Below are positions 28,008 to 58,900 of a stretch of 64,000 nucleotides of DNA, piece by piece. A model generated the notes under the pieces. It had not been told where the DNA came from. It did no database searches and saw nothing but the letters and a program-made list of their open reading frames with translations. Every line of letters starts with the position of its first letter. Position 1 is the first letter of the stretch. Source of the DNA: a virus; IMG/VR virus record IMGVR_UViG_3300043675_000007, positions 4,556 through 68,555 of that record; one strand, written 5' to 3'. A program made the position numbers and the translations under genes.

Positions 28008-28117
28008 TGATTCGTAGGCCAGGGGGGCGCGCTCCGTGAGGAATAGGGCGCCAAGGAGCGTACAGCGGCAGGAATTGGGCTTACATGCCAGCGGCTGGCA
28101 AGTGCCCTATATGTCGT

Positions 28118-28576: not shown

Positions 28577-29334
28577 TGCCGATCATCGGCGGCAGGGGTC
28601 TTAAAAAGCGCCGAGGTCGAGAAGTGGATGTCCTTGATGTAGTAGTAGTTGCCGAGCGCGTTCTGTGGCATTGAGCCCCACGTCATGTTGTCCTGCAGGT
28701 TGAATTTCAACGCCTGCGTGCCCACGGGGAGGTTATAGCCACCGACACCGAGCGGTACCTTATAGGTCGCCCAGACATTCGGCTGCGGCGCGGGGCCGAA
28801 TGATTCCACCGACTTGGTCAGGCCGCCGCCGGCAATGGTCGTATCGCCAGAGCCCTCAAAGCCGCTTACCCAAGTCTGCCCGGCCCGCGTCGGCATGAGC
28901 ACAAAGACCAAGTACTTGAACCCCGTGGTGTTGAACACCAGCAGGCTGTTGGGCGGATTCTGGCAGAACGGCTGAAACCCTCCGCCGCCGGCATGGCCAT
29001 CGGTCCCCATCGGGGTCGTGGCCAAGATCTTCATTGCTAAGGCACCATCCGGGGCGGTCTGGCTATCGATTTCCTGCGACCCGCCATAGTTGAAGTTGCC
29101 GGTCCAGGTGCTCTTGCCGCTCAAGACCACCTGTGAGTTGCACGAAGACCCCAACGTGGGCGGCGGTATGACAGGCGGGGCGACGACGGGTACCGGCACC
29201 ACTGTGCTCTGGCCAGCGACGGCGATCGTCACCTGGGTGGGTGTGACGGTAACGGTAAGCGGGATATTGACGGTGGTAGCTGTGACGGCCGCCGCGGCCA
29301 TCAGACCGGCGATCAAGAGTGCGATGCGTTTCAT
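28558..29334 (-). CDS. secreted protein with a putative carbohydrate-binding (galactose-binding-like) domain
   Basis: Sec-type signal MKRIALLIAGLMAAAA, a Pro/Val linker, then a beta-rich domain (FNTTGFKYLVF...W.TYKVPL...YYIKDIHF). Confidence 0.6.
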   Translation of the reverse strand: MKRIALLIAGLMAAAAVTATTVNIPLTVTVTPTQVTIAVAGQSTVVPVPVVAPPVIPPPTLGSSCNSQVVLSGKSTWTGNFNYGGSQEIDSQTAPDGALAMKILATTPMGTDGHAGGGGFQPFCQNPPNSLLVFNTTGFKYLVFVLMPTRAGQTWVSGFEGSGDTTIAGGGLTKSVESFGPAPQPNVWATYKVPLGVGGYNLPVGTQALKFNLQDNMTWGSMPQNALGNYYYIKDIHFSTSALFKTPAADDRQWRLAA

Positions 29335-29381
29335 GGATGTAAGCCTTCTAAAGGTGAATAGGGGGAAGTGTCGGGTCAGTC

Positions 29382-29528
29382 TTATCTGCCGACAAAGAAA
29401 ATGATGAGCAGGATGAGCAGCAGCAGGCCGCCGCCGCCATAGCCGTAATGGCCCCACCCGCCCCAGTAGCCGCCGCCGAAAGCACCAAATGCCAAGAGCA
29501 CCAACAGGATCAGCAGGATCGGGTTCAT
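29382..29528 (-). CDS. small Gly-rich membrane protein (DUF3309-like)
   Basis: MNPILLILLVLLAFGAFGGGYWGGWGHYGYGGGGLLLLILLIIFFVGR, translated by hand. GGAG RBS. Confidence 0.65.
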   Translation of the reverse strand: MNPILLILLVLLAFGAFGGGYWGGWGHYGYGGGGLLLLILLIIFFVGR

Positions 29529-29540
29529 GGACTTTCTCCG

Positions 29541-29927
29541 TTAGTCAACTGGGAACAGTCTCCACATGAACCGCTCGAAGAGCGTCGGTTTGTGCGTGAG
29601 CACGTACTGCGCCGTGTGGGCGAGGCGCGGGGGAATGATCAATTTGGTTGGCCGCACGGTGAACGCTTCATTGTCGCGCAGCTGGTTGAGCATGTCCTCG
29701 AGGGACTTCTCGTTGAGCGGCGCATCCGTGCCCGCGGTGTTGCGGTAGAAGCGCTTGAGGCCGTCCGGCTGATCGGTCTTGATGTACCAGGCAGTGTCGC
29801 TGACGAAGTAGTCTGCCACCTCGACTTCGATGTCCTCACGACGCGGCAGCCGCAGGGTAGATCCCGCCAGCGCGGTGATCGCTGGCAGGGCGGCGAGCAT
29901 CCCAAGAAACTTGCGCCGGCTGACCAT
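29541..29927 (-). CDS. Tat-signal protein containing circularly permuted major-capsid-like segments
   Basis: SRRKFL plus a hydrophobic stretch. The two segments align by eye to the major capsid protein in reversed order. Confidence 0.7.
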   Translation of the reverse strand: MVSRRKFLGMLAALPAITALAGSTLRLPRREDIEVEVADYFVSDTAWYIKTDQPDGLKRFYRNTAGTDAPLNEKSLEDMLNQLRDNEAFTVRPTKLIIPPRLAHTAQYVLTHKPTLFERFMWRLFPVD

Positions 29928-29945
29928 GGGCGCGGATCTTACCCC

Positions 29946-31304
29946 TTAATTGCTGTGCGAGCCGCTCCAGTAGGTAAGGTCCGTCACTTTCGCGGGTGAA
30001 CCGCCCGGTCCGTAGATTTGCACTGGGCCCTTGAACTCGAACACATCGGAGCCGTCGCGCTGAACCTTAAATTGCGGAAAGCCCGGCGCCATTGGCGCCA
30101 CGAATGAGGTGATGCCAGCCGGCGCGCCCGTAGCGTTCCCGTTGATCATGAGCGTTGCCGGCGCGGTCAAAAACGCAAGAAGCTCGATGTTGGCGGTCTC
30201 GATGCCCGGGGGCACGATCTTGAAGGGCAGCAGTTGGTTCGCATGCGCGGCGGTCGAGAGCATCGGCTTGTAGCACCAGTACGCGACGTCCTGGGTGATG
30301 CGCGGCTGCACGCCGGTGACAAACCAGGTGATGTAATAACCGAGCAGGTCATAGAAGCCGGTGCCGATATTGGGGTTAAGCGTCGCATCGGTGCACGGCG
30401 AGACTTGACCGGACTCGGAGTAATCGTTCCACGTGACCAGTTGGATCATCTGGCACATGGGCGCATTGATCGCCGCAAGGAAGCCGGCGCGCAAAGACCC
30501 CGTGTTGCCCGCCTCCCAGAAGCATTGAGCGTCGGGGCGAAACTGCTGCGGCAGCACGGGCATCATAAAGGAGGGCGGGCACGATTTGGCCGCGTCGGGC
30601 GTTGCCGTCCCCCACCCACCTACGCCGTGAGCGATGGCCGCGTAGGGGTCTGAGGCCGGTTCGCCCAACAGCACTGGGACAAAGGCGACATCGATATCCT
30701 GGGCATTGAGGCCGGCAATGACCTGCTGCCACCAGGTGAGCGGCATGCGAGTCGCATTGAACGCCGTAAAGAGCATGCGCCCATCGGGGAGGCGCGCGAC
30801 GTTCGGTTGGGTCGAGCACGCCGCGAGCACCGAGACCGCCTGCGCGACGGTGAGGCCTGCGCCCAAAGAACTCATATCGAGCATCGGCACGACCCAGAAG
30901 CGCAGGTCCGCAGCTAGGGCGGCCTTGAACAGCCACGCGAGATGCCCGTTAGGATTTAGCTGCCCGGTCGGTAAGATCGCATCGGCCAAGGAGAGGACAT
31001 CGAACTCGAATCCCGTAACACCTCGAGCAATCGCCCTGGTGACTTCCAGCTGCAGGTTCGCGATTTCGTAACCCGGGGTCGCCGCGCCGATGGCCACGGG
31101 CGGCGGCCGCTGGCGTAGGAACCCGCCGTAGGGTGCGTGCTTGCCGCTCTCCCCGCCCACGGTGAGGAACTGCGTCTCGTAGTAGTCGGTCAAGGACGGC
31201 GCATTGTCGATCGAGAGCGGGAAGGGGCAGAAGTAATGCGCGACGACGCGCTTCGGCGAGTTGAAGAACACGTCCGCAGGGGGCATGACGAAGGGTAATT
31301 TCAT
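29946..31304 (-). CDS. glycoside hydrolase family 71 (alpha-1,3-glucanase-like)
   Basis: VVAHY, A.A.GVTGF..D, and IQLVTWNDYSES motifs typical of GH71/GH99-like TIM barrels. Confidence 0.75.
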   Translation of the reverse strand: MKLPFVMPPADVFFNSPKRVVAHYFCPFPLSIDNAPSLTDYYETQFLTVGGESGKHAPYGGFLRQRPPPVAIGAATPGYEIANLQLEVTRAIARGVTGFEFDVLSLADAILPTGQLNPNGHLAWLFKAALAADLRFWVVPMLDMSSLGAGLTVAQAVSVLAACSTQPNVARLPDGRMLFTAFNATRMPLTWWQQVIAGLNAQDIDVAFVPVLLGEPASDPYAAIAHGVGGWGTATPDAAKSCPPSFMMPVLPQQFRPDAQCFWEAGNTGSLRAGFLAAINAPMCQMIQLVTWNDYSESGQVSPCTDATLNPNIGTGFYDLLGYYITWFVTGVQPRITQDVAYWCYKPMLSTAAHANQLLPFKIVPPGIETANIELLAFLTAPATLMINGNATGAPAGITSFVAPMAPGFPQFKVQRDGSDVFEFKGPVQIYGPGGSPAKVTDLTYWSGSHSN

Positions 31305-31561
31305 TTAGTTTCCTTGGGTGATGGGCGCAGCCCGAAACGGAGCGTCACGACGAGGGAGGTGGGCCCATTGGTCGTACCGAGCAGAACCACCCCGGGGAAG
31401 CGCGTTGTGATCTTCTCGGTATAGCGCGTCTGTTTCTGCTTGTCTTTGCGCTCGAGCATCACGCCGACCCGGTTGCCGGCTTTGGCGGCATTCCCGATCG
31501 CATCGATGCGCTTGTCTTCCTCGAGCCTGTGCAGGTCGAAGATGGCTTTGGGTACGCTCAC
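31301..31561 (-). CDS. hypothetical protein
   Basis: Coupled to the GH71 start (ATGA). Contains the AAGGA RBS of that gene. Confidence 0.45.
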   Translation of the reverse strand: MSVPKAIFDLHRLEEDKRIDAIGNAAKAGNRVGVMLERKDKQKQTRYTEKITTRFPGVVLLGTTNGPTSLVVTLRFGLRPSPKETK

Positions 31562-31703
31562 AAAATGGGGGCCGGGTACGTAGAGTCTCTCCCGTCAGGG
31601 ATCACGAAGTCCGAGCGTTGCTTTCCAGGTGAAGACCAATCTGCGCGGCTCGAATGAATCGCTCCCGTTCCGATGGACGGTACCCAAACTACGGAGGGCC
31701 CCC

Positions 31704-31967
31704 TCACGTTGTAATTCCTGTCATTGACTTCGAGCTTATGCGATTGCGCGAGTACCAGTAAAGAGGATGCACGCGCGCACCCTGCGGAATCTGCGTCGCC
31801 GGCCAGCGCAGGCAGCCTAAGTGCTTGCGATACGGTCGGTTCCTGTTCTGACGAATCGTCTGCACCAGGTACGCGGATCCTGCCGGCGTTTGAAGGTAAT
31901 CGCCTGATTGCAGGTCGCGGCAGCCGTCGTAGTAGAGCTTGCACGGTGTATAGGGCTGGCGCTTCAC
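31704..31967 (-). CDS. hypothetical protein
   Basis: GTGA-coupled ORF. Confidence 0.4.
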   Translation of the reverse strand: MKRQPYTPCKLYYDGCRDLQSGDYLQTPAGSAYLVQTIRQNRNRPYRKHLGCLRWPATQIPQGARVHPLYWYSRNRISSKSMTGITT

Positions 31968-32278
31968 GCCTTCCAGCAATCAGGGGCGAGCGGCGCGCCA
32001 TCCGCGTGTGCAATGTATACGCCCGCGGTCAGGTTGAAATGGATGCCGCAGGGCACGTGGCGCTTGAGTGAGGGGGTGATGGTCGGGGCCTGCAAGTTGC
32101 CGTCCCAGGTCCAGAATACTTCCCGATTCGTGCGCCGATTCTCGCCCACCTTCTCCAAGCACACGATGTCCGGATACTGGCAGCCGCACGGGCAGTTGCA
32201 CTGGAAGTACCACCCGGAATTAACGGGGCCTTCGAATATCTTCCAAAACCCAGGCTGTGTGCTCGGTAGCTGCTGCAT
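31964..32278 (-). CDS. small Cys/His metal-binding protein (DUF6527-like)
   Basis: CPCGC...WTWDGN..APTITPSL...CGIHF. Confidence 0.6.
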   Translation of the reverse strand: MQQLPSTQPGFWKIFEGPVNSGWYFQCNCPCGCQYPDIVCLEKVGENRRTNREVFWTWDGNLQAPTITPSLKRHVPCGIHFNLTAGVYIAHADGAPLAPDCWKA

Positions 32279-32279: not shown

Positions 32280-34121
32280 TTAGAAAAGATCCTCACTGGC
32301 GATGATGGCCGAGCCCGGGCCGACTATAAGCCCCAGGGCGCGCAGGCGTCCAAGGGTGTTGTCGACGTGGCGGCTGGTGGGGTCGTAGCCGGTTGCCACA
32401 GCAAGATCATCGCGCGTGACCGGGTTCGGCCACTTGTGTATCAGGAAGGTCAAGAATCCGGCCTCCGCCTTGCCAGATTTTGCCAGCCACGCCTCGCGCA
32501 ATCCTGCACCGGTGGGCATGAGTGTCCGCGTGCCCAGTGCAACCAGGCCTGGCCCCGTAATCTGGATGTTGGTCCCAGGTCCCTCGACGTAGCCGGCGCC
32601 GCGCAGGCGTCCCAGGGTGTTATCCACGTGGCGGCTCGTCGTTGAGTACAGCGAGAAGCGGGCCAATTGATCGCGGGTCGTCACCCTGTTCTGCCGTTGC
32701 GCGAGCACATTCAAGAACGTGCGCTCCGCGGCTCCGAGCACATTTATCTCCACCTTCTCGAGCGAGTCCTTCGATAGGCGCGTCTTGCGCACCGGCTTGC
32801 CTGCGGGGTGCGCCGCGCTGTTGAGCGCTACCCCATCCCCGACCTGCGGGTTCATCAGCACCTCCGTGCCGAGCAACTTCATCGAGATTTCCCTCTGCGC
32901 CTCAATCGATGGATAGAGAAGGGACACGGCCAGCGCGCTCTTGACGTGGGCACGTGACCTATCCACCTGGGCGTCCATCGTCATCTCAAATGCCCCGATG
33001 GTCTCATCGAGCAATGCTCGTTCCCGGTCGACCGCTATGGCTTCGCACGCCTTCCAGCCTTCCTGGTGCCCGCGTTTGTACGAACCATAGGCCATCGCGT
33101 TGTGATCAACGGGGCACTGGTGCACAACCGTGGGCATCGGCTGGGGGCCAAGCCGATGCTGTTGCTCTATCCTGGTAATTGAACCCTCGAGCTCCGAAAT
33201 CCTCTTGCGCAGCAGGGCCGGGTCATTGGCTTCCGCCTCGGCGACCGCCTCCCCGATGATGCTGCGCAAGGCCTCGACGTCCACCGGCGCGGTCTTGACC
33301 ACTTGGGCGAGGTCATCGTCTTTATCCGGCGTCTTTGAATTATCGAAGGTCTTCGCCTTCGGGAATTCCATCAGCGTGAAGAGGTTCGCCTCGCCCGAAC
33401 ACACCCAGCCGGTGCCGGTTTTGAGTTTCGGCATGGAATCGGTGATCTGCTCGCGCAGCGCCTTATCCTTGACGTTGGCCTTCATCCATTTGACGACCGG
33501 CTCCTGATCAGCGGGCTGCGTCATACGGTGCACGATGACCGTCTCGCAGCTACCGAGTACCGCATTGTGCAGCGCCTGGACGCGCTGATCGAGCACGATG
33601 AGCCTGATCCCCTTCGACCGGCCGCCGGTCGCCACCGCCTTGGCGTAGTGGATGCTCATGTTCTCCTTGCCGAAGCCGGCGCGCTCTTTGGGGGCAAATT
33701 CGTGCGCTTCCTCGATGACGAGGTAGAGCACGCCGCGGATCTTCATCATCAGGCGCGGGATGAAGTCCACAAAGAAATGCTGCGCCCCACCCGGGGGGAA
33801 TTGGGCCATATCGAGTATGGAGAGGCGCAGCGAACCGTTGGCGACCACGTCCGCAATGGCTTTGCCGGACGTGTGATGTAGGGGTACATGTCCATGCGGC
33901 CCCCCCAGAATCGTGAAAGGCAGGCCGGCGCGCTTACCGTCCGCGCTCGAGGTCAAGCCCCACCAGTCAGACTTCACCGGATCGATGATGCAGACGCGGT
34001 ATTCCTCCGCGACCACCTGCTCAACGCACACCTTCCCGGTCGTGGTCTTGCCGGATCCGGTCTTTCCTAAGATGCCGATGTGTTGGGCAAGGATGGCATC
34101 GGGAACGTGGAACTGGCTCAC
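32280..34121 (-). CDS. HerA/FtsK-like (DUF87) ATPase with two C-terminal winged-helix repeats
   Basis: Walker A GKTGSGKT, IIDP, Walker B LVIEEAHEFAP, GRSKGI..., and QR motif. Duplicated SRHVDNTLGRLR. Confidence 0.8.
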   Translation of the reverse strand: MSQFHVPDAILAQHIGILGKTGSGKTTTGKVCVEQVVAEEYRVCIIDPVKSDWWGLTSSADGKRAGLPFTILGGPHGHVPLHHTSGKAIADVVANGSLRLSILDMAQFPPGGAQHFFVDFIPRLMMKIRGVLYLVIEEAHEFAPKERAGFGKENMSIHYAKAVATGGRSKGIRLIVLDQRVQALHNAVLGSCETVIVHRMTQPADQEPVVKWMKANVKDKALREQITDSMPKLKTGTGWVCSGEANLFTLMEFPKAKTFDNSKTPDKDDDLAQVVKTAPVDVEALRSIIGEAVAEAEANDPALLRKRISELEGSITRIEQQHRLGPQPMPTVVHQCPVDHNAMAYGSYKRGHQEGWKACEAIAVDRERALLDETIGAFEMTMDAQVDRSRAHVKSALAVSLLYPSIEAQREISMKLLGTEVLMNPQVGDGVALNSAAHPAGKPVRKTRLSKDSLEKVEINVLGAAERTFLNVLAQRQNRVTTRDQLARFSLYSTTSRHVDNTLGRLRGAGYVEGPGTNIQITGPGLVALGTRTLMPTGAGLREAWLAKSGKAEAGFLTFLIHKWPNPVTRDDLAVATGYDPTSRHVDNTLGRLRALGLIVGPGSAIIASEDLF

Positions 34122-40200: not shown

Positions 40201-40777
40201 CCTGTAGGCGTGGGTGAGCTGCAGGAGGTTCGCGCGGTCCCAGTCAATCTCGATACGCAGCATGGTGATGTCGGTCGCCGCGCCCTTGGCGAGCTCCAAC
40301 GCGATATCGATGTGTTCGGCATGCTGCTCATTCAAGTCGAGAACTTTGCCTCGAAAAACGCCAGTACCTTGGTTCGCATCGCACTGTAGGCTCCCGGTTG
40401 CCACTTTCTCTCCAGCCATGTTGTGTTCATCTCCGCGTTCATTTGAAAGCCCATGATCCCCCGGTGCTGGCTGCACGCCCAGTAGTGGACGATCGCCCAT
40501 TTCCCGCAACGAGGTACTCCGCAGCGGTGCAGCCTCGGGGTCCTCGCCATCAGACCGTGAAGTAGACACGGATGTCCTGATACTCGAGGCGCTCATCGCC
40601 GCGTGCAACGACGCCGGCGGCGGTCAGGAAGCACTCGACCGGCTTGCAGCCATCGGATAGGTGCACGAAGAGCGGCATGGCGCCCTTGTCGAATTTGCAG
40701 GCGCCCTTTTTGTAAGTCTCACGGTACATCTGCTTTTCCCGCGGCGGTTTCGGCGGATTACGCACAAGAGCGCCCAT
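37238..40777 (-). CDS. run of about 14 short, translationally coupled hypothetical early genes, several Cys-rich (e.g. 37238-37561, 37554-37760, 37753-38064, 38061-38261, 38292-38489, 38479-38688, 38685-38834, 38831-39097, 39094-39342, 39339-39656, 39653-40036, 40033-40419, 40332-40550, 40550-40777)
   Basis: Head-to-tail ORFs with ATGA/GTGA overlaps on one strand. Zinc-ribbon-like motifs (FCPYCG, CGTCKHW, CFIC). No functional family recognised. Confidence 0.5.
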
Positions 40778-41547
40778 TAGAAGGGGATGTCATCATCGAA
40801 GTCCGCATTCGGATCCCGCTGGCGTTGCGGGGGCAGCGGACCCCAATCATCAGTCGGCGCGTGGGGACCTGCGGCCATGCGCTCGGACATGGTGGGCGGC
40901 GGCACGTGCTTGGGCGGCGCTGCTGCCGCGGGTGGGGCAACCTCGCCCGTGGCGATGTCTACGGTCTCCCATTGGCCGGTCGCCTCGTTGAACACCGGCG
41001 GCGGTGGCCTGCGCGGCACCGGAGCAGGGGTTTCCCACTGTTGGGTGACCTCATTGAACACAGGTGGAGGCGGGCGCCTGGCTGCGGCTTGAGGCGGCGG
41101 CGGCGGGGTGATCCAGGCCTGGCGCTTATCATCCCAAACAGGCTGGGGCGGCTGGCGCTGTGCGGAACCCGCGGGCGCATCTCCCCATGAACCTGAATTT
41201 GGGTCTGCACCTTGCCAGACAACCCCGGGCGACGTTTTGATGCCCACTCCGCCCACCAGGCGCCCACCAAACTCAACATTCGGATCAAAGTAGATCTTGA
41301 TCCGCTTGCCCGTCCAAAAATCTGAGTCCGGCCCGTAGGCTGCCTCCAAGATATTCACGCGCGTCTTGTTCAACTGGAGCCCTTTGGGCGTCTCGTTGAA
41401 CCAGAGGAAGCACTTCACATCCTTCTGGCCACCGCCGCGCCCCATGATTTCCTCGGTGACATCGGCAATGGTGAGCACCTGCGGGGGCTGTCCCTCAACA
41501 TCGCGGGCCCGGAAGTATTTCGACTTGACCATATCCGCGGTGCGCAT
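40777..41547 (-). CDS. putative single-stranded DNA-binding protein with an SSB-type acidic tail
   Basis: N-terminal domain (SKYFRA.D...LNKT...YG.DS..WTGK.I..Y.D..V.FGG), a Pro-rich repeats linker, and the C-terminus DFDDDIPF. Confidence 0.7.
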   Translation of the reverse strand: MRTADMVKSKYFRARDVEGQPPQVLTIADVTEEIMGRGGGQKDVKCFLWFNETPKGLQLNKTRVNILEAAYGPDSDFWTGKRIKIYFDPNVEFGGRLVGGVGIKTSPGVVWQGADPNSGSWGDAPAGSAQRQPPQPVWDDKRQAWITPPPPPQAAARRPPPPVFNEVTQQWETPAPVPRRPPPPVFNEATGQWETVDIATGEVAPPAAAAPPKHVPPPTMSERMAAGPHAPTDDWGPLPPQRQRDPNADFDDDIPF

Positions 41548-42923: not shown

Positions 42924-43478
42924 TCAAGTGTTCACATCGAAAGTGCACGCGGACTCAACGGATCTGTGCGGCCCGTGGTATTGCAGTGCAAAGACGGGTT
43001 TCCGGTGCCTGCAAATCATCAACCGCCGTCTGGTGCCGCGTCTGAATTTACGGCGTAATAGACGTCGTCTTCGCGACTTACCATAATATACATTCTCACG
43101 AACTTGAGAGTACTCGTCGGCGTGAGCGGGAGGTGCGTCGAATGCCGCTAATCCTAGGGCCGCGACGAGAAAGACGACCGCCGCCCGATCCCGAAAGGCG
43201 TCGGCAATTTGTCGCCACACACGACCCGTATCTCCAAAGCGATCGGCATCCTTCAAACGCTCCGCGTTGACACAGGCAATCACATAGGCGCGGGGCATTT
43301 TCAAAAGGTCCGCGACCTTAATGGCCCAGTTATCGCTCATGACCGTGCCGTTTCGCCACTGGGAAGTTAGCTGCTGCTTCGCACCCAGGAGCTTCGCGAC
43401 GCGGTAGTCGGACGCGCCGTCGTGTCGGGCGCTGAGCAGGTTCAAAAGCTCAAGAGTTGTCATTGTCTTGGTGGACAT
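42924..43478 (-). CDS. XRE-type HTH repressor (DUF3693-like)
   Basis: SDYRVAKLLG....TSQWRNG...A.KVADLL...AER...W..IA. Divergent from the rightward promoter. Confidence 0.7.
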   Translation of the reverse strand: MSTKTMTTLELLNLLSARHDGASDYRVAKLLGAKQQLTSQWRNGTVMSDNWAIKVADLLKMPRAYVIACVNAERLKDADRFGDTGRVWRQIADAFRDRAAVVFLVAALGLAAFDAPPAHADEYSQVRENVYYGKSRRRRLLRRKFRRGTRRRLMICRHRKPVFALQYHGPHRSVESACTFDVNT

Positions 43479-43579
43479 AGTCCTAACCTCTGCAAAGGTG
43501 TTGGGGCTTCACCCTACACCCAGGATTAGCGACGATCAAGCCACACGGGTCGATTGTGCAACACCACTCGTGTGATGAG

Positions 43580-43608
43580 TTGACACACAACAGATGCCTG
43601 TGTAGTTT
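43580..43608 (+). promoter_or_regulatory. strong sigma70-type rightward promoter
   Basis: TTGACA (43580-43585), 17-nt spacer, and TAGTTT preceded by TG. Confidence 0.75.
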
Positions 43609-43614
43609 CGCCCC

Positions 43615-44225
43615 GTGGTCGCAGCAACCCTCGCTCCGCATCTGACTAGTCCTCAGGCGCTTGGGTTAAAGGCTGCAACCATGGGTTGCTGCGACCGATT
43701 TTGCGGCGTTTGCAGACGCTAGGACTCAAACCATGGATGACCGAGGAATTGTGACTTCGCGCCGGAATGACAGAGGCGCGGAGTGAGGTAGATGGGAAGA
43801 AAAACAAATGCCCGCACGAGGCGGGCATCGGTTGCGAAGTTACTAGCTTCGACTACCAAGACTGTGTTCGCGCACGGCTTCGGCACCCTGCATTCTACAG
43901 GTTGCCCACCGCTTGCTCCACTCAGTTTTGACATAGTCAAGCCCTTCTCAACCTTGGGGTGCGTGGACGGGATTTCTACGTCAGCGCGCACCCCGAGACC
44001 GACTACTGGGGGCCCTATCCAGTCGGCGCGCAGCGTAATGCACGGGAGCGCGAAAGTAGGCCAGGTAAGGAGGTATGCCTGGAATGAAGCGTGCAGCGGG
44101 CGGCGCCGTCATGGCCGATTCCGACGAGCCTCAGTGCTTTTTGCATTGGGCTCGTCCGTGCAAGCCCACCATCTGACCGACAGGGAAAACCAGACCGCAA
44201 TCCGACCCCCGAATGGGGTCAGAAG
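43615..44225 (+). ncRNA. candidate large structured RNA / RNA-dependent replication control region
   Basis: At least 10 helices, including a perfect 14-bp stem (43617-43630/43683-43696) and a 13-bp stem (43953-43965/43985-43997). G:U pairs favour the + strand. Starts right after the promoter. Confidence 0.55.
43797..43828 (-). terminator. intrinsic terminator for an antisense transcript
   Basis: ATGCCCGC/GCGGGCAT 8-bp stem followed on the minus strand by TTGTTTTTCTT. Confidence 0.65.
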
Positions 44226-44245
44226 CTCAAAAGGAAAACAAGAAC

Positions 44246-45148
44246 ATGGCACGGAACACCGCAATCGAATGGGCAGATCACACTTTCAATCCCTGGTGGG
44301 GATGCACGAAGGTTTCCCCTGGCTGTGATCATTGCTATGCGGAAAAACATTCCAAACGATTCGCTCCCGGTCTTTGGGGCGATGATGCAAAGCGGCGCGT
44401 GTTCAATGAGGCGCATTGGGAGGAACTGCTGGTCTTGGACCGCAAAGCCGCAAAGGACGGTACCAGGCCACGGGTCTTCTGCGCCTCCATGGCCGATGTC
44501 TTCGACAATCACCCGGGCGTCACCGGCTACCGCAACCATCTGTGGCAGTACATCGAGAACACCCCGAATCTTGACTGGCTGCTGCTGACCAAGCGCATCG
44601 GCAACGTCAGGAAGATGTACCCGCCCTCGTGGCTCAAAGCACCGCCACGCAATGTGTGGCTCGGGATCTCCGTCGTGAATCAGGTCGAAGCGGATCGGGA
44701 TATCCCGAAGCTGCTCGAGACGCCCGCGCACATCCGCTTCCTATCCTGCGAGCCGCTGCTGGGCGAGATTGATCTGCGTCCCTTCAAACGTGGGCTGTGT
44801 CCGACCTGCGCCGGCGATGGGCAAATCCTCGCTCAAGACTGGAATCCGCCGCGCATGACCCCGAGCCCTCATCCCTCGCCCGACCCTGAAATGGAGGAGT
44901 GCAACGAGTGCCGCGGCACGGGCGAGTGGCCCGATAATCCGGGCCTGGACTGGGTGATCTGCGGCGGGGAGTCAGGAAGCCACGCGCGCTACATGGACTA
45001 TGACTGGGCCTTTCGCATTGCATCCGCCTGTCAGGAGATGGGCGTTGCCTTTTTCATGAAGCAGGGGTCCGCGAAGAATTGGCCGCACTTCAAGCGCTTC
45101 GAGTCTTTCCCTGTGATGTTGCAGATCCGCGAGTGGCCCACCAAATGA
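44246..45148 (+). CDS. phage Gp37/Gp68 (DUF5131) family protein with an inserted CxxCxGxG zinc finger
   Basis: IEWADHTFNPWWGCTKVSPGCDHCYA, RVFCASMADVF, LLTKR, RFLSCEPLL, WVICGGESG and FFMKQ motifs. Confidence 0.85.
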   Translation: MARNTAIEWADHTFNPWWGCTKVSPGCDHCYAEKHSKRFAPGLWGDDAKRRVFNEAHWEELLVLDRKAAKDGTRPRVFCASMADVFDNHPGVTGYRNHLWQYIENTPNLDWLLLTKRIGNVRKMYPPSWLKAPPRNVWLGISVVNQVEADRDIPKLLETPAHIRFLSCEPLLGEIDLRPFKRGLCPTCAGDGQILAQDWNPPRMTPSPHPSPDPEMEECNECRGTGEWPDNPGLDWVICGGESGSHARYMDYDWAFRIASACQEMGVAFFMKQGSAKNWPHFKRFESFPVMLQIREWPTK

Positions 45149-45349
45149 AAAAAGGCACTTTAACCTTCCCAGTGGCCGCGTCTGACCTGTATCAGGTCGG
45201 GGACTACTTAAACGTCTGTCTCACCAATCGCGGCTGGAAAGTCGTGCAGATCACGCTGTGCGAGGGCTGCCGCATCGAGTTCGTAGTGGTGCCCTGGTAT
45301 GCACGCCTGTGGCGCTGGATTGTTTCATTTTTCAACCAAGGAGATGGCC

Positions 45350-45529
45350 ATGTTGATACTGACCCGCCGAGTAGGCGAGATGATAAAGATCGGACTGAAC
45401 GTCGAAGTGACGGTGATGGCCGTCAATGGCAACCAGGTGCGCATCGGGGTGAAGGCGCCAAAGACGACCATTGTTGACCGCGAAGAGATTGCCGTGCGCC
45501 GGCGCGAGAATCCGGTCTTCGTTCGATGA
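45350..45529 (+). CDS. csrA: carbon storage regulator CsrA/RsmA homologue
   Basis: [34 protein letters not shown]...VDREEI. AAGGAG RBS. Confidence 0.9.
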
Positions 45530-46675
45530 GCACATTTGACGGGAAGGATACCTGGGCGGTGGTGCGCGAGCTCCTGGCCCAGCGTGACATGCTCAATACC
45601 GCCATGCGCGCGATCCTGGCGGATGACCAGAGCTACATGCAAATCTTCGCGCAGGACTACGGGATGCAAACCGATTTGGACCCCATCCGCAAGACCGACA
45701 TCATCAAGCACGCGGTCGCACGAATCGACCAATGGAGATAGCAGCGTGAACAGATACTCGAAGCAGGACGACGATACGGCGGAGATCAAGCTGGCCAAGA
45801 TCAGGGAGCGGATCCGCAAAACAAACTTCCCCGACCCGTACGCACCGCTCCAGTGGCGAAAAGACTCCGACACCCGCCTCGTAAGCCACTGCGGAAGGTT
45901 CGCGATCGAAAAACACGGCGAAGGTGACGCGGTTCGCTACACCGCGAAATTGCAGCCGCATTCGGTCTTGGGTGTCCGCCTGTTCACAGCGGAGAGCGCG
46001 AAGGAGGTGTGCAATCGGCACGCCTCCCCGCTCCCCCTCGAGCCGCCGAAGGAGCCTCGGCAACAGGAGTTGGTCACCGATCGGGACCCCGGGAGTGATG
46101 ACGAATGACGCTACACGAGCGTTTGGAACAGATAGCGAAAGACTTACGTGGGCTGGCTAGCGAGATGATCGCCGGCGGGGAGTCCGACAGCGCCATCGCC
46201 CTGCTCCAGGCCGAGCGCGCCGTTGCTCACGCCAACGATGTGATGGCAGACAATTTTGACACGCAGGTCACTGTCCTGCTCGACGACTCATGAACGAGGA
46301 TCAAATGCTGCGCTGGGTTGTGCGTCATCGGCTACGCACCCTGCGCAGCTGCATGCGGATCATCACCGCGAAAGCCGCATTTCGCCGCTTCGCGCTTCGC
46401 TATCTGGAGCGCTCATGCCGTTCGTGAGACTCCCCGGCGGCCAGGTCGCCCACGTGCGCATGAGTAAGCCGCGCCGGCGCCGCTGCAAGGTGTGCGGCCA
46501 TGCGACCGATGAGCGCTTCTTGAGGGAGTGCGATTTCACCCTGCCGAATGGCAAGACCTGTGATCTTCTGATGTGCGACAAGTGCGCATTCCAGGTCAAA
46601 CCTAATTTCGACCTATGTCCGGAGCACAGCCCGGAGAGGGTCTTCCAAGCCCAACCACCCAAGGAGTCAGCATGA
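45526..46675 (+). CDS. short hypothetical genes (45526-45741, 45746-46108, 46105-46293, 46415-46675; the last is a Cys/His zinc finger)
   Basis: Coupled ORFs on the + strand. CKVC..CD...TCD..MC..C...DLCPEH pattern in the last one. Confidence 0.5.
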
Positions 46676-47286
46676 AACTCATCGTCTATGACTGCGAGAT
46701 TTTAAACGCCATCCCCGACAGCATCACCAAGCTCGCGCCGCTGCCCGGCATCAATTATTGCAAGGGCTGGGGGGATCATGCCGGCATGGGTATCGCCGTG
46801 ATCTGTGCCTATGTCTGGGGCGAGGGCTATCGGGTGTTCCTCGGGGACAACATGGCGGAGTTCCACCAGCTCGCGCTCTCCAAGTCATCCATCATGGTTG
46901 GCTTCAATAACCGCGCTTTCGATGACAAGTTGCTCAGGGCCAATCTCCCGGTTGATCTTCCAGAGGATCGCTCCTGGGATCTGTTGCGCGAGGTGCGCCG
47001 CGCGAAGGGCCGGAATCCAGATGCACCCGGGAGCAGCACTGGGGGGCTGGATGGATTGGCGCGCGCTAACTTCCTCGAGGGGAAGAAAAGCACCGCCAAT
47101 GCACCGATCGATTGGCAGCAGGGAGCCCGCGGCAAGGTGATCGATCAGTGCCTCACCGATGTAATACTCACCAAGAAGCTCGTGGAGCTCGCGCTCGATT
47201 ATCGGCTGCGCGATACCGAGACGGGGCGCAAGCTCAACGTGAACATTGACCTGCTCAAGGCCGGTGTCGACCTGGTAGAAGCATGA
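46672..47286 (+). CDS. RNase H-like/DEDD 3'-5' exonuclease
   Basis: IVYDCEI, VGFNNRAFD, SWDLL, GLDGLA..N and CLTDV motifs. AAGGAG RBS. Confidence 0.75.
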   Translation: MKLIVYDCEILNAIPDSITKLAPLPGINYCKGWGDHAGMGIAVICAYVWGEGYRVFLGDNMAEFHQLALSKSSIMVGFNNRAFDDKLLRANLPVDLPEDRSWDLLREVRRAKGRNPDAPGSSTGGLDGLARANFLEGKKSTANAPIDWQQGARGKVIDQCLTDVILTKKLVELALDYRLRDTETGRKLNVNIDLLKAGVDLVEA

Positions 47287-47705
47287 GCTCGGTGGTTCGC
47301 TTCTATCTCGGCGCCATGCCATTTGCTGAGTACGTGACGGATGGCTTGCCGCTGCGCGGAGAATACGTGAGGTTCGCGCCAGATGGGCCCGCATACCTGA
47401 TCGAAGCCATCGTGTGCCATTACGACAAACGCGGCTCTATACCCCGCGCCGATGTCGCCCTGTCGGAACAGAATCCGGGCGGCATCCAGCCTTTCCCACA
47501 AATCACCAGGGCGCCGAAGCAATTCGTGCCCATCGAATCGATCGAGCCACCACCAGAGGAAATTCAACATGCAGAAGCTGTCAATAACAAAAAGGGCCGG
47601 CAACATCGGGGGGTCGATCGTCAATCGAACCCAGATGCACGGGAAGAAGGAAAAGGTGCCGGCGATATCGCTCCCGGTGCTGGGGATCATCCTCACCGAG
47701 GATGA
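47283..47705 (+). CDS. hypothetical protein
   Basis: ATGA coupling. The C-terminal part overlaps the next gene. Confidence 0.35.
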   Translation: MSSVVRFYLGAMPFAEYVTDGLPLRGEYVRFAPDGPAYLIEAIVCHYDKRGSIPRADVALSEQNPGGIQPFPQITRAPKQFVPIESIEPPPEEIQHAEAVNNKKGRQHRGVDRQSNPDAREEGKGAGDIAPGAGDHPHRG

Positions 47706-48240
47706 GTTCTGCGCGATCATGCAGGACCCGAGCGCCTACAGCTGCTACTTCACGAACGAGCGCTCAAGGGTGTGGGAGCCGCGCTTCCCAGGGATCGAGC
47801 CCATCACGCTCTCGGACAAGTTCGAAGGGGCGCGCGCAACCATCAAAATTGAGGACTCGGTTGAGCCCTTGGTTCTGAAACCGGCGACGATCGGCGGTAT
47901 CGTGATCGTGTGCATGGGCGCACAGCCGATCATGAAGTGCATGGTATCGGGCGTGCCGGACGTGCATTTGCAGACCCTCACCTTTCTTAACAAGCGTTGC
48001 ACGGTCTCAATCCTGAATGGCGCGCTGGATCGCAGCGAGAATCAGAACGACTTGGTGCTCGAGGGCGGCGGCCCGACGATCCATCCCCCTGAAAATGACG
48101 ACGATGACGGGGATGGTCCTACCGGGGCGCAAGTTGACCAGGACGAGGCGGAGGCGACCGCATCAGCCATGGGCCGGCAGATTGGCAACAGCGATCTTAA
48201 AGCCGCTGCGAAGAAGAAACGCGCTGCGAAGGCGCGGTAG
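47569..48240 (+). CDS. hypothetical protein
   Basis: GAGG RBS. Last gene before the terminator. Acidic then basic C-terminus. Confidence 0.55.
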   Translation: MQKLSITKRAGNIGGSIVNRTQMHGKKEKVPAISLPVLGIILTEDEFCAIMQDPSAYSCYFTNERSRVWEPRFPGIEPITLSDKFEGARATIKIEDSVEPLVLKPATIGGIVIVCMGAQPIMKCMVSGVPDVHLQTLTFLNKRCTVSILNGALDRSENQNDLVLEGGGPTIHPPENDDDDGDGPTGAQVDQDEAEATASAMGRQIGNSDLKAAAKKKRAAKAR

Positions 48241-49143: not shown

Positions 49144-50814
49144 TTAAGCGTACCGTTTGCGGGGAGCGCGCTTCCACGCCCACGGGGAAATTTCGTCCCG
49201 CTCATCGTCCGGTAGCTGCAAGTCGTGGTAGCGGCGCATGTACATCCAGGCCATGACCAAGGTTGAGACGTAATCGTCATGATCACCATTTGGGAACTTC
49301 GAGGCTTCTTCGATGACCTTGTACGCGAAGGGGCGCGGCGGGTAGAAGATGCACCCCTTCTCGAGCATAAGGCTGGCGGGGTGGGCTCGCGCGATGAGAT
49401 CGCCCTGCTTGCCCGGCTTGCCACTGGAGCCTGCGAGGGTGACCGCTTTGATGGGCAATCGCTTGCGGCGCAGCTCCTGAATGAGAGAGTGACCCGAGGA
49501 TTTCTTTTCCACCAAGATCCAGTCCGGTGCGAACTCGTTATTGGCCTCGATGGCAGCGGTCCGCAGGTCCGGATACGCCAGGCGCTCCTGCATCGCATCG
49601 AGCAGCATGGCGCACACGCGCCGCTGGCCGGCCACGGGACGCTTTAGCTCCTTATCCCAGTGCATCTCCTGGTGATCGAATAGGCCCCAGGTCGTGCGCG
49701 CCGAGTAGTCGTCCTCTTCCTCTTCCTCAAAGGCGGTATCCCAGACCTGAATGATTTCGGAAAACCGGGGCATGGGACGTTCGGTATTGGGCGACATGCG
49801 CCATTCCGGCTGTATCCACGGGCGCCACCACTTGCGCTTCAAGATCAATCCGCCCTCACCCGTGGGCGCCTGGTTTTGCTGTGCCTGCCAGCCGCGCTCG
49901 GACATGTTGGCCTTCTCGTGGTTGACCGTCTTGGCGCTCATGCGCTTTGGGTCAAGTACCTCGAGCTCCAACTTTCGCGGGTCGGTGAAGATTGGGCCGT
50001 CATCCAACAACGGGCCGTCCCCCTTATTCTTGAAGGTGATGCAGCGGGATCCGGGGTTGAACTCCTGCGGGATGATCAAGTGGCACCAGCGCTTGCCCTC
50101 GCGCTCGAGCACGTGGCCGAAGATGTCCATGTCGTGCGTGCGCTGCCCGACGTAGACTTTCTTCGCCGTGTCCGGATTATTGACGCGCGAGCGCCAGGCG
50201 TTGTCGTGCCAGGCAAGGGCGGAGTGGCGTACCGCGTCCGATTCGATCTTCTTCGCATCGTGCGGGTCATCGAGGATCTGCGTCGTGCCGCCGACGCCGG
50301 TAATGCGCCCCTGCAAAGAGGCGGTCATGCGGTAGCCGCCCTTGCGGTTGCGGTACATGCCGACCTGGTTCTCATCATCAAAAAGCTCAATCTCGCCGGG
50401 CCACTGGCGCTGATACCACTCGGAGGTGATCAAGCGGCGCGAGAGAATCGCGGCATCATTGGCGAGCACCTGGTCAACGCCGGCGGTTAGGAACTGCTCG
50501 CCCGGGATGTGCAGCCAATGCCACGCGGGCCACAGCACCGAGACGATCATCGTCTTTGACATGCGCGGCGGGATGTTCACCATCAGGAAGCGAATCTCGC
50601 CCAAGGACACGTAGGCCAAGTGGTCGCAAAAGGCGTCCATGTGCCAGTTCCAAATCGGCGCCTCGGGTAGTAACTGCGTCCAGGCGCGTTTGCAGAAGGT
50701 GGCGAGTGAGCGGCGTGCGGAGGCGGCCGCGAGCTCGGTGAACGAGGTGCGCAGCGCTTGGGGCGTAAGCTTGGGTGCGGGCTTTAGCTGATCGCCCGTC
50801 AAGAGGTTGTACAT
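49144..50814 (-). CDS. terL: terminase large subunit
   Basis: NIPPRMSKT (Walker A), ITG.GG...ILDDPH (Walker B), VGQRTH, WDTAF...DYSA, VEKKSSG and FPNGDHDDYV motifs. Confidence 0.92.
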   Translation of the reverse strand: MYNLLTGDQLKPAPKLTPQALRTSFTELAAASARRSLATFCKRAWTQLLPEAPIWNWHMDAFCDHLAYVSLGEIRFLMVNIPPRMSKTMIVSVLWPAWHWLHIPGEQFLTAGVDQVLANDAAILSRRLITSEWYQRQWPGEIELFDDENQVGMYRNRKGGYRMTASLQGRITGVGGTTQILDDPHDAKKIESDAVRHSALAWHDNAWRSRVNNPDTAKKVYVGQRTHDMDIFGHVLEREGKRWCHLIIPQEFNPGSRCITFKNKGDGPLLDDGPIFTDPRKLELEVLDPKRMSAKTVNHEKANMSERGWQAQQNQAPTGEGGLILKRKWWRPWIQPEWRMSPNTERPMPRFSEIIQVWDTAFEEEEEDDYSARTTWGLFDHQEMHWDKELKRPVAGQRRVCAMLLDAMQERLAYPDLRTAAIEANNEFAPDWILVEKKSSGHSLIQELRRKRLPIKAVTLAGSSGKPGKQGDLIARAHPASLMLEKGCIFYPPRPFAYKVIEEASKFPNGDHDDYVSTLVMAWMYMRRYHDLQLPDDERDEISPWAWKRAPRKRYA

Positions 50815-55925: not shown

Positions 55926-58900
55926 TCAGGCAAATGCCTCCAATGATTCTGAAACGCGGGGGCGCGGCCGCTCGGGCATCGACTCCCACAGTTGGGCGAA
56001 AGCCGGATACCCTGCGGCCCTCAAAGCCGCGACCGCGTCAGGCTTACTCTTCCCCTGCACCAAGCCGCTGATCTTGTCGGCCGCCTCCGCAGCCTTGGCC
56101 TTGTCGGTCTTGATCTCTCCCTGCGTCTCCTTCAAGTGCGTCTTCGCCTTGATGATTTCCTCGCGCAGCTTCTCGGCGCCCTTGACATCGTTGCCCTGCA
56201 TCGCCTGTTTGTAACGGCGGTTGAGGCCCCGCAGGTAGCTTTGCTCTTCCTCGCGGTGCTGATACCGCTCCATCTGTTCGGGCGACGTCACACGCGCCGG
56301 CGCCGGGGTCAACCCGAAATAGGGGGCCGCGGCGAGCGCCTTGCCGCGCGCATCCATCGCACCGGCGCCTACGAACTGCTTGGTGCCTTGAATTGAGAAG
56401 GGCACCACCTCGCGCCCAGCGTATGCCGCGCTTTCCTTGAGCTGCGTCCAGAAGTCCTGATCAGAGGTGCGGATGGCATTGCCGTAGAAGTCCTCGTTCG
56501 CATAGATCGCGTGGATGATCCCGAAGACCGGATTCGCCTTGTTGATCAGCGTGGTCATCGGCTGGGTGCCGTACTCGTACAGATCCTTGGTATAGGCAGG
56601 CAGCGACATGCGCTCCGGCGTGCCGTACTTGGTTTGGCGCCCGGTCGGCGGAAAGAAGTAGTCCTTGGTGTCCTTCGGATTCTTGCCGGTGAAGAGGCGC
56701 GTGAGCATGGCGCCGATGATCATGGTCACGGCGAGCAAGCCGATGGTGTAGGGGATCTTGTGCCCGACCTTATCGGCAATGCGGTTGAGCAGGCCCTTCG
56801 CACGTATGTACTCGAGGCGCTCCGGCGCATCGTTCACCAGGCCCGCTTCCGGCAGCTCGGGCGGGGCGCCGCGGGCGAGGTAGTCCAGGAGCTTCACCAC
56901 ATCGACGGGCGCACCGCCCAACTCGCGCACGGTGCCTAAGTTCCAACCCACCGCGCGCACCGCCATGTGGTTCACTTCCTTGAACGTGCGATTCCAGAAA
57001 AGATTGTCGTACACCATCTCGCCCAAGCGATTGTCGACCGAGTCCCAAATCTTCTGCATCGCATTGGCGAAGTCGATCGGGTTCTCATCCGGATTGCGCC
57101 GGATGTGATCGCGGGCAAGGTCCGAGAACACGCCCAGTTTCTGCAAGGGGACGATGTGCTCCATGATGATCGAGGTCGATGCGCGCACGGTGCGCCCGGC
57201 TACCTCGAGGGGGACCTGCAGCGCGGGAATTGAGGACTCATGCCACATCTGTTCAAGATCGCGCCACAGCCGCGTCGCGTACTCGCGCGGAAAACTCGCC
57301 AAGGCCTTGCCGGTGTCGGCGACCTTGCTCTGAGACTGGGTCATGATCTGGCGGATCTCGGAGGCGAGTCCTGCAAACCCCACGCCTTTGAACGGGGATT
57401 GGCCCTGGCCGGCCATGTAGTAGGTGTCCATTTTTACCCGGCCGCCGGCGGCGGTGAGGCCCTCGATGATCTTCTGCATCAAAGGATCGGCCGCCCCAAC
57501 GTTGGTATAGGCCTTGCGCAGTGCCATGCCGCGCTTCAAGTTCATGCCGGCGCCGCCGAGGAAGGTTGAGGCCTCGAGCCACGCGCGCACCGCTCCGATC
57601 GGCTCCCCGTGCAACAGCCGCTCAACGCCCAAGGCCGCCTTGGAGACGACCGCATCTAAGGTGGTGAAGCCTAAATGGAAAGCCGAGAAACCCAACTGGA
57701 GCGGGGTAACCACGTTGGTGAGCGATCGGAACAGCTGCGCGGGAATAAAGTTGCGCAGGGCTGATTCGCCCAGGTGGTTATTAATGATTCTCCCAGCATC
57801 GGCCGGCATGATGTAGTAGCCGCGGATGACGAAACCCTGCTCGTGCTCACTCCACTGGAGCACACGCCCCACCGCATCCTTGATCTTTACCCACCCCTCC
57901 GGCATGCGCTTCTGCGCGGGGAGGAACTTCGCGAGGCCTTCCTCCTTCAATCGCTGCACGAGCTTGGTGCCGGTGATGAAGCGCTCCATTTCCCGCACCT
58001 TGGCAAATGCCAGGACGAGGGGGTTGGTGCTCACGGGGATCAAGCCCTTTTCGATGCCTTCTTCGGTCGTCGGGATCGTGCGCTGCTTTAGGAAACTCGC
58101 GGGGCCTTTGAGCGGCCGGCTGCCGAAGATCGATGCGAATATCTTTTTCGCGCCGTTCGGATCCTTCCAGATGTGCGGGAAGTAGTTCTCGATGAAGCTC
58201 TCGAGCGCCCCCACGCCAAGATCCTGCACGCGGGTGCGGGTGTCATCGAGCAGATTGCGAATCGCGGTAGCCGCGCTGTCGTGCTCGGGCAGGGGCTGCG
58301 GATCGCCGGCCTCCATCGCATAGATGAAGTTTAGGCGGTCATCGTGCTTGAGCAGGTCGAAGGCCTTGGCGTACTTCTCAAGGTTCGAGAGCGCCTCTTC
58401 GGACTTGTGCGCGAGCTGGCCCAACTCATCGCGGGTGAGATTGGCCGTGGCCTTGGCGAGGTCCGAGACTCCGGAGGGGTCCAGGATGCGCCGGAATGAC
58501 ATCGTGATTTCATTGCCCGGGATGGCCTGCACCGCTTTGCGTCCAAGATCATAGGCGGCGGGGATCACGCCGCGCCTTGGGCCCGGTGCCGCGCTCTTCG
58601 GCCGGCGCTTCAAGAACATCGGTTGCCCAAGCATCAGGGAGTCGCGCATCGCCTGCGTGATCTTCACCATATGTACGGGCAGCGTTTCAGCGCCATTCAC
58701 CGCCTCGAGGGCAGCCTTGGCGGTTGCGAAATCCCGCTTGGTGTCGTCGGGCATGTAAGCCCACCACTTGCCATTCTCGAGCAACACGCCGTAGCCACCG
58801 TCGGACGGCCGCACGGTGAAATTCATCCCGGGATTCTGGGCGGCATGGTCCCTGGCCACGGATTCGACTCTATCCATGGACACGTTGTGTGATTGCGGGA

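Follow-up and report, generated by a model that had tools for sequence, protein, structure and literature searches.

The window, i.e., the whole stretch of DNA analysed here (64,000 nucleotides), represents bases 4556-68555 of the 68,555-bp IMG/VR virus record IMGVR_UViG_3300043675_000007, which CheckV rates as 100% complete. Comparative sequence evidence identifies the plus strand of positions 43800-44225 as a real, conserved, multi-helix RNA of ~425 nt that heads an early operon of the phage. The RNA is situated in a divergent control region, in an intergenic gap of 767 bp (43479-44245). It consists of at least ten helices in two modules, a 5′ module (H1 to H4) and a core (P1 to P6) with a candidate pseudoknot, and it is a new, much larger RNA built around a hairpin pair that resembles the Rfam motif Betaproteobacteria-1 (RF02932). 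Among bacteria and phages, few RNAs longer than 400 nt are known that have the support of covariation. Those that are have proved to be ribozymes, scaffolds of ribonucleoproteins or RNA-only complexes that self-assemble. The RNA described here stands at a phage decision point, following Cro and opening the early operon; it has a candidate antisense partner, and its cores are apparently interchangeable.

Conservation, folding and covariation

The plus strand of 43800-44225 folds with an energy of -183.3 kcal/mol, compared with -157.0 ± 6.5 kcal/mol in 100 dinucleotide shuffles, none of which is as good (z -4.07). The sequence immediately upstream, 43607-43800, shows no significant structure (z -1.72, with 14 of 200 shuffles as good) and no homologue in any of the fetched loci. 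An earlier note on this DNA, made from the sequence alone, had described a highly structured transcript of ~620 nt. Its part from 43800 onward is significantly folded and conserved, but the upstream third is neither, and thus the conserved structured unit is ~425 nt and not ~620 nt. The individual helices listed in that note do exist. Those at 43617-30/43683-96, 43803-15/43821-33 and 43953-63/43987-97 are recovered by an inverted-repeat search, 43754-63/43775-84 is present in the minimum-free-energy (MFE) fold of 43607-43800, and those at 43835-51, 43882-906, 43999-44004/44021-26, 44061-65/44078-82, 44123-56 and 44204-20 are found in MFE folds or in the sequence. The G5 tract is also present at 44008-44012, but it is not conserved and reads GAGGG in the five related contigs described below. 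No tRNA or tmRNA gene was found by ARAGORN.

Homologues were sought with protein relatives of the adjoining DUF5131 gene, with an alignment-driven scan of metagenome contigs and with DNA patterns taken from conserved stretches. The same RNA is found in five other phage or metagenome contigs, designated L083, L086, L162, L163 and L169 (L083 is truncated on the 5′ side by the contig end, and L169 is the same contig as L293). The RNA of L083 is 88.6% identical to that of the window over 175 nt, while the adjoining DUF5131 protein is only 58% identical. The other four match in nhmmer at E 1e-11 to 2e-13. R1, a covariance model built on the core's 5′ half, scores known members at 128-156 bits and these four at 150.8-155.9 bits. 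No further member was detected with R1 at E<0.25 over 99 + 75 sources, and none in 15 additional loci or in the five loci L311-L315. A blastn search of the cultured-phage collection with the gap sequence did not reveal a match, and none of 80 IMG/VR loci of DUF5131 relatives has the RNA. A pattern scan of bacterial genome contigs yielded at least 120 stretches, with no true homologue among the matches listed when these were assessed by nhmmer (the best, L265, at E 0.12). Two IMG/VR pattern matches, L170 and L171, lie within coding sequence and were set aside as chance matches.

The 5′ module is more widespread than the core. L082, L322 and L294 (this last being one contig with L319) carry H1 to H4 as well; they share neighbouring genes with the window group and have something else in place of P1-P6. 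A different conserved insert follows H4 in L082 (335-500) and L322 (~1650-1850). This insert has its own compensatory change, CUCCAG...CUGGAG versus CUCCGG...CCGGAG, which suggests that it is a second, interchangeable RNA core.

An RNAalifold consensus of five sequences recovers P1, P2, P3 and P4, with 14 of 60 predicted pairs compensated. The written-out structure was counted on an alignment of six sequences (the window and the five contigs), where 93.9% of 230 cells are paired and 10 of 42 pairs are changed on both sides. Shuffled controls display 4.6 ± 1.4 two-sided changes and none of 500 reaches 10; when the partners are slid by 1-3 columns, only 27-41% of the cells pair and 0-4 pairs change. 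Covariation among homologues, by which the earlier note had proposed to check its prediction, is thus present. It should be noted that the family is small, with six DNA sequences and three translations, and that the window and L083 are close, with several of the compensatory changes being single events, so that these statistics are strong indications and not proof.

The minus strand of 43800-44225 folds equally well (z -4.10), and therefore energy alone gives no strand. The wobble pairs favour the plus strand, with 16 G-U cells versus 4 A-C cells, as the earlier note had stated of its G-U pairs, and the sub-threshold Rfam match described below is also on the plus strand.

The comparisons also indicate that 43800-44225 is non-coding. 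A 178-aa open reading frame (ORF), 43792-44328, is open across the region. Three database proteins of 188-189 aa (P0121-P0123), which represent the region's translations in still closer relatives and were used as translations only, align to it at 55-57% identity. In addition, AAGGAGG precedes an ATG at 44075 that starts a 33-aa ORF (44075-44176). However, in P0121-P0123 it is the two ends that agree with the 178-aa ORF, near letter for letter, while ~35 middle residues are unrelated to it. This middle third (KCAAGGAVMA..DEL) matches another frame of the window, the 33-aa ORF (MPGMKRAAGGAVMADSDE). Two frame shifts that compensate each other thus leave the nucleotide sequence conserved, as expected of an RNA but not of a protein. 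Single-nucleotide insertions or deletions are also seen among the other homologues in the alignment. The 33-aa ORF was itself considered as a gene and rejected: the AAGGAGG and ATG (44067-44077) form the P4 loop and are not conserved, and in four homologues a GCAA or UUGG loop takes their place while the stem is kept by compensatory changes. Neither Pfam nor PHROG families were matched, the 178-aa ORF overlaps the start of DUF5131 out of frame, and long open frames are common at 62% G+C (the window has 61.6%). A protein encoded here, whether of 178 or 33 aa, is therefore the least credible of the explanations considered, and the absence of a convincing protein gene that had been claimed for the region agrees with a reading frame that homologues do not keep. 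The suggestion of a new large non-coding RNA class in a tailed phage gains support from the same data: the region is conserved, its helices covary and its frame is not maintained.

Helices of the RNA and their relation to known RNAs

The coordinates of the helices, and of the other features of the region, are collected in the table.

Table. Features of the RNA, its surroundings in the window and CsrA homologues in related contigs (positions are those of the window unless a contig is named)
Feature	Position	Strand	Basis or remarks
Conserved structured RNA, whole (5′ module, core and hairpin adjacent to the ribosome-binding site)	43800..44225	+	Fold z, nhmmer, covariation, wobble strand bias
H1 hairpin (AUGCCCGC/GCGGGCAU), 5′ hairpin of the sense RNA	43808..43828	+	8/8 single-sequence folds, with differing stem sequences
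H2 hairpin (CGAAG/CUUCG), followed by invariant GAC	43835..43851	+	7/8 single-sequence folds
H3 hairpin, conserved loop CAUUCUA	43882..43906	+	Folds; loop reads TAGAAT as a minus-strand -10
H4 small hairpin (UUGAC-AUA-GUCAA)	43928..43940	+	Folds; covarying
P1, 12-bp stem, inner stem and conserved loop (GG.CGGG...ACGUCAGC)	43954..43996	+	Rfam alignment; Betaproteobacteria-1-like hairpin 1
P2, CCGACU/AGUCGG, loop ACUG(G/A)GGGCC	43999..44026	+	Betaproteobacteria-1-like hairpin 2
P3, CGCGC/GCGCG around a loop with invariant CGGGA	44027..44052	+	Covariation count
Candidate pseudoknot or alternative helix, GCACG (44040-44) with CGUGC (44090-94)	44040..44094	+	Crosses P3, encloses P4; 93% paired
P4, CCAGG/CCUGG, loop UAAGGAGGUAUG	44061..44082	+	Apparent Shine-Dalgarno and ATG not conserved
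P6 long hairpin (GACGAGCC.CAGUGC/GCAUUGGGCUCGUC)	44123..44156	+	MFE folds of window, L083, L086 and L162; sequences differ
H7 hairpin (GACCCC/GGGGUC), then AGAAGC	44204..44220	+	Directly before the DUF5131 ribosome-binding site; covaries
Candidate cis-antisense small RNA, ~90 nt: -10 TAGAAT (43897-43892), weak -35, terminator H1 + UUUGUUUUUCUU	43797..43897	-	Terminator scan; -10 by eye
Promoter-like TTGACA (43580-85)-N17-TAGTTT (43603-08)	43580..43608	+	Read from sequence; -35 6/6, -10 3/6; candidate rightward early promoter
Perfect 14-bp inverted repeat 43617-30/43683-96, 52-nt loop, then GAUUUUG	43617..43703	+	100% complementary; in fold; phage-specific
Helix-turn-helix repressor-like gene	42924-43478	-	Left of gap, divergent; phrog_4441 E 1.5e-17, phrog_638 E 1.8e-15
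DUF5131 gene (Gp37/Gp68 family), first in rightward operon	44246-45148	+	PF07505 E 8.8e-69
CsrA homologue, second gene of operon	45347-45529	+	PF02599 E 1e-17; phrog_9500
CsrA homologue	L086 1126-1278	-	tblastn
CsrA homologue	L163 5014-5166	+	tblastn
CsrA homologue	L162 2682-2834	-	tblastn
CsrA homologue	L130 1327-1479	+	tblastn
CsrA homologue	L292 8815-8994	+	tblastn

In the 5′ module, the H2 stem is CGGGG/CCCCG in L162, CGGAGG/CCUCCG in L163 and GGAAGG/CCUUUU in L169; in L086 the MFE fold forms the stretch differently, and an AACC/GGUU stem was read by eye. The H3 loop is CAUUCUA in the window, L082 and L322, CAUUGUA in L162 and L163, and CAUCUUA in L086, and its stems covary (CCCUG/CAGGG, GGGCU/AGCCC and GCGGG/CCCGC). 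The H4 stem, also read by eye, is UUCCG/CGGAA in L163 and UUCC/GGAA in L162.

In the core, 5 of the 12 pairs of P1 are changed on both sides. One pair of P2 differs on both sides, being A-U in the window and G-C in four others. Pair 85/103 of P3 is CG in three sequences and GC in three. In the candidate pseudoknot, pair 97/147 is UA in four sequences and AU in two, a single compensatory event common to the window and L083. The P4 stem is CGACG/CGUCG in L083 and AGGGC/GCCCU, with the GCAA or UUGG loop, in L086, L162, L163 and L169. P6 was read by eye in L163 and L169, and its arms and loop show insertions or deletions of 1 nt and 2 nt between the window and L083. At the 3′ end, the H7 stem is UGCCGC/GCGGCA in L083, UGACGC/GCGGCA in L086 and L163, and UGACGC/GCGUCA in L082.

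At gathering thresholds, no Rfam family was matched anywhere in the window. Below threshold, P1-P2 match RF02932, Betaproteobacteria-1, at 32.9 bits (cut-off 49.4; E 3.3e-4 in a 1.1-kb search), and a second weak match, independent of the first and in the homologous part of L086, reaches 25.4 bits against the same cut-off. Betaproteobacteria-1 is an orphan candidate small RNA motif that is said to come from the survey of Weinberg et al. in NAR in 2017. P1-P2 align to the whole 120-position model with both helices formed. The loop letters GG.CGGG...ACG.CAGC (P1) and CUG.GGG (P2) are present in the window, and both helices covary in the phage family. Because helices and conserved loop letters line up, the two-hairpin module is taken as probably related to Betaproteobacteria-1. 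However, both scores fall short of that required for membership, and the phage RNA is 3-4 times longer than the Rfam model, with the 5′ module, P3-P6 and the candidate pseudoknot lying outside it.

RF02932 itself exceeded the cut-off in a single genome, G219, of the 151 that were sampled from one family (84.4 bits at 1501-1624 of locus L311, corresponding to G219:C360:3569-3692). Searches of five named-locus genomes and of 151 genomes sampled from a class did not reveal it. The G219 member is located between a Toprim_3 primase-like gene and genes for DUF1064 and NinB, in a prophage-like setting with a rightward early operon of lambdoid type. Model R1 does not recognise this member and gives at most 6 bits on L311-L315, the loci that hold the RF02932 matches. 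The motif may be phage-borne in general, of which G219 is a single case. The pair of hairpins described here, inside phage early operons, provides a first context for this orphan motif.

Other large RNAs were also compared. Like GOLLD, ROOL, HEARO, OLE and raiA, the RNA exceeds 400 nt, has many covarying helices and is phage-borne (GOLLD and ROOL are prophage-associated). However, it has no Rfam match to any of them, is smaller and is present in few contigs so far. Control by counter-transcripts or leader-derived RNAs is known from the c4 RNA of P1/P7, the CI RNA of P4, sar of P22 and attenuation of the pT181 type. The RNA shares with these the position of a regulatory element heading an early operon and a candidate cis-antisense partner. 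Unlike these, it has no Rfam C4 match, no attenuation terminator was seen on the sense strand, and both its size and its number of helices are far greater.

Operon leader, free-standing RNA and other explanations

The role that we tentatively prefer for the RNA, with confidence just short of an even chance, is that of a cis-acting 5′ leader of the rightward early operon, with an antisense partner. The ~425-nt RNA would form the leader of an operon comprising DUF5131, CsrA, small genes and a DnaQ-like exonuclease gene, and would act in cis on its expression. Possible routes are transcript elongation (by anti-pausing or antitermination), transcript stability or, by way of the hairpin adjacent to the ribosome-binding site, translation of the first gene. 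The position of the RNA is constant in the relatives, after a Cro-type gene and before variable early genes. A P22_Cro/YdaS gene lies directly upstream on the same strand in L086 (PF14549 E 1e-8) and L163 (E 4.6e-13). Downstream there is DUF5131 in the window, L083 and L086, and other genes in L162, L163 and L169. At its 3′ end the RNA runs straight into H7, a Shine-Dalgarno-like AAAGGAA and the DUF5131 ATG at 44246, as a 5′ leader would.

The antisense partner would be a ~90-nt RNA from the opposite strand of H3-H1, complementary to the 5′ module of the sense RNA, that modulates the leader. H1 with the A-rich tract at 43797-43807 reads as an intrinsic terminator on the minus strand. This opposite-strand terminator is listed in 4 of 6 loci scanned (the window, L086, L082 and L169) and not in L163 or L162. 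Upstream of it, the H3 loop supplies a minus-strand -10 of TAGAAT, TACAAT or TAAGAT. A full promoter of matching form, TGGATA-N17-TAGAAT, is listed in L082; the TAGAAT of the window was read by eye and is absent from its promoter scan listing. Such a cis-antisense RNA is plausible from the arrangement of these signals, and it is clearest in the clade of the window itself.

The start of the sense RNA is indicated by the relatives. Directly before H1, TTGnnn-N17/18-TATAAA (CATAAA in L163) was read by eye in 6 of 8 sequences (L082, L322, L294, L086, L162 and L163), and the RNA would therefore start at or near H1 in those phages. The TATAAA sites are not listed by the promoter scan because it requires a T at position 6 of the -10. 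In the window, which lacks the Cro-type gene that the relatives carry here, the corresponding site is degenerate, with AAGAAA in place of TATAAA; here transcription of the RNA may thus be driven instead by the promoter-like site at 43580. This site had been called near-consensus. Its -35 does match at all six positions, but its -10 at only three, and it is missing from a consensus scan of the window, which listed 0 promoter-like sites. It is also not conserved, as the relatives have the Cro-type gene at that place. Between this site and the conserved RNA, the 14-bp inverted repeat with its 52-nt loop is a possible attenuator or terminator.

Among the cis mechanisms, the put RNAs of phage HK022 were considered. 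putL and putR are cis-acting and bring about antitermination and anti-pausing independently of protein. A published account (PMC9378689) describes the HK022 put RNAs as two stem-loops of ~70 nt that follow the early promoters; for putR the distance from the PR start is ~270 nt. P1 and P2 are likewise two stem-loops, spanning ~73 nt (43954-44026), and in L086 and L163 they are preceded by a Cro-type gene; the resemblance is one of layout only. The present RNA greatly exceeds put in size, and no terminators needing read-through were found. If the RNA did act on RNA polymerase as put does, RNA-only antitermination would extend beyond HK022-like coliphages.

Several results weigh against the proposed leader, or against a put-like action of it. 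On HK022 24000-32000, R1 with filters off gives at most 5.4 bits (E 0.63), which represents no similarity to put, and RF02932 gives no match at E<=10. Intrinsic terminators downstream of the RNA are not in excess, with 4 found against 4.0 expected. Put-like antitermination is accordingly kept only as one possible cis mechanism. The degenerate site before H1 in the window also tells against the leader, and a promoter belonging to the RNA itself is equally compatible with a free-standing RNA that acts in trans.

Such a free-standing RNA at the operon head, made from its own promoter and possibly processed, is the main rival to the cis-acting leader, although we consider it rather unlikely. It might serve as a protein-binding scaffold, as a ribozyme, or in anti-defence or host targeting. 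The promoter-like sites directly before H1 would suit it. The size, the number of helices, the candidate pseudoknot and the invariant loop nucleotides fit the usual pattern of RNAs that adopt a tertiary fold. The genes that follow the RNA differ between contigs, and the core is swappable, as the structured insert of L082 and L322 shows with its own compensatory change. The full-scoring Betaproteobacteria-1 member that was examined, in G219, also sits between genes inside a prophage operon. On the other side, there is no plus-strand intrinsic terminator after the RNA, H7 goes together with the ribosome-binding site of the gene downstream, and no target or partner was identified. One candidate role in trans, a sponge for CsrA of the CsrB/RsmZ type, was rejected. 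GGA motifs are not enriched: 5-10 occur per RNA where 6.6-8.0 are expected, and for all five RNAs assayed a fraction of 0.21-0.83 of the shuffles attains the count observed. The presence of a CsrA gene tracks phage lineage, including loci without the core RNA.

ColE1 plasmids replicate from an RNA primer, RNA II, under the control of an antisense RNA, RNA I. That the RNA is a comparable pre-primer or origin determinant of an initiator-less phage, with the antisense RNA as copy-number control, had been the suggestion of the earlier note; we regard it as improbable. In this reading, DNA synthesis would be primed or licensed by the ~425-nt transcript and copy number set by the ~90-nt antisense RNA, while the swappable cores would act as determinants of incompatibility or specificity. 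The chance that a 68-kb tailed phage holds a ColE1-style replicon of this design seems slight. The two systems have in common a long structured sense RNA and no recognisable initiator protein, and the candidate antisense RNA, which would be complementary to the 5′ part of the sense RNA, would add the layout of RNA I and RNA II. DnaB_C, Toprim_3, Prim-Pol, DNA_pol_A, Phage_rep_O and Phage_integrase were all absent from a six-frame search of the whole 68,555-bp record in which the positive controls matched, and this bears out the statement that no polymerase, primase, DnaB, initiator or integrase could be recognised. Most early proteins of the phage match no family in Pfam and PHROG searches, and the full-scoring Betaproteobacteria-1 member in G219 lies directly after a Toprim_3 primase-like gene. 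If the RNA were tied to replication, the lack of recognisable replication genes in a 68-kb phage would be accounted for.

However, the analysis gives such a replicon no positive support. No Rfam plasmid-primer or RNAI family is matched, at the gathering threshold or at E<=10, and there are no iterons. The GC-skew inflection that would have favoured an origin is not seen at 43-45 kb. There is no AT-rich unwinding stretch, the lowest 40-nt G+C fraction of the gap region (0.40) being inside the repressor gene. The G5 tract is not kept in the homologues. The close relatives L082, L322 and L294 have the neighbouring genes in common with the window and either lack the core or carry a replacement, and unlike RNA II the RNA ends in H7, a ribosome-binding site and the start of a translated gene, not in a non-coding origin. 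In addition, many proteins without assignment could act in replication, including an ATPase of the HerA/FtsK type at 32280-34121.

It is more improbable still that the region acts at the DNA level, as operators of the genetic switch, or as folded DNA that serves for single-strand initiation or packaging. The location in a divergent control region would fit, H4 (TTGACATAGTCAA) and the 14-bp repeat are palindromic, and hairpins could also form in single-stranded DNA. However, in contrast to protein-binding sites, the stems change in sequence as they covary, the wobble pairs are biased to one strand, and in the relatives the conserved part is downstream of the Cro-type gene, outside the usual operator region.

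Neighbouring genes and further observations

In addition to the divergent repressor-like gene, a DUF3653 helix-turn-helix gene is found on the left of the gap, also on the minus strand. The rightward operon includes, besides DUF5131 and CsrA, small genes without a family match. The DUF5131 proteins of the window's clade have a zinc-ribbon-like insert with paired Cys motifs (C..C ... C..C) at residues ~180-235, which the alignment shows to be absent from P0036 and P0042. The CsrA homologue is carried by the window phage and five related contigs, in some in the rightward early operon and in others in the leftward. Among the loci searched by tblastn it was found only in L086, L162, L163, L130 and L292, together with the window's own copy (L001).

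Two genes that flank the region had been assigned from their sequence. For the gene called SSB-like (40777-41547), the only PHROGs matched are of unknown function, and Pfam gives no family. For the supposed RNase H-like nuclease (46615-47286), there is only a weak match to a DNA polymerase exonuclease PHROG (E 8.8e-4) and likewise no Pfam family. The Protein Atlas gave nothing for the 262-aa protein at 47452-48240. In a tblastn search with the terminase, cultured phages gave only distant matches (<=37% identity).

The ATPase at 32280-34121 (DUF87; 613 aa, minus strand), for which the Protein Atlas gave the HerA/FtsK type, has weak winged-helix matches at its C-terminal end. It is additional to the standard large terminase at 49144-50814 and might function in replication, packaging or DNA translocation.

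A giant open frame extends past each end of the record. On the left, the minus-strand frame at 1-5997 of the record (L295 1-5997) has 1,999 aa and displays GGDEF, InPase and the N-terminal half of a Strawberry-notch ATPase. On the right, the minus-strand frame at 55926-63998 of the window has 2,690 aa and holds the rest of the ATPase with Helicase_C_4. The ends of the record display no in-frame join and no exact terminal repeat, which weighs against a single protein. The two frames nevertheless probably represent one polyvalent protein of more than 4,600 aa on a permuted or circular genome, and with its Strawberry-notch helicase such a protein could act on DNA.

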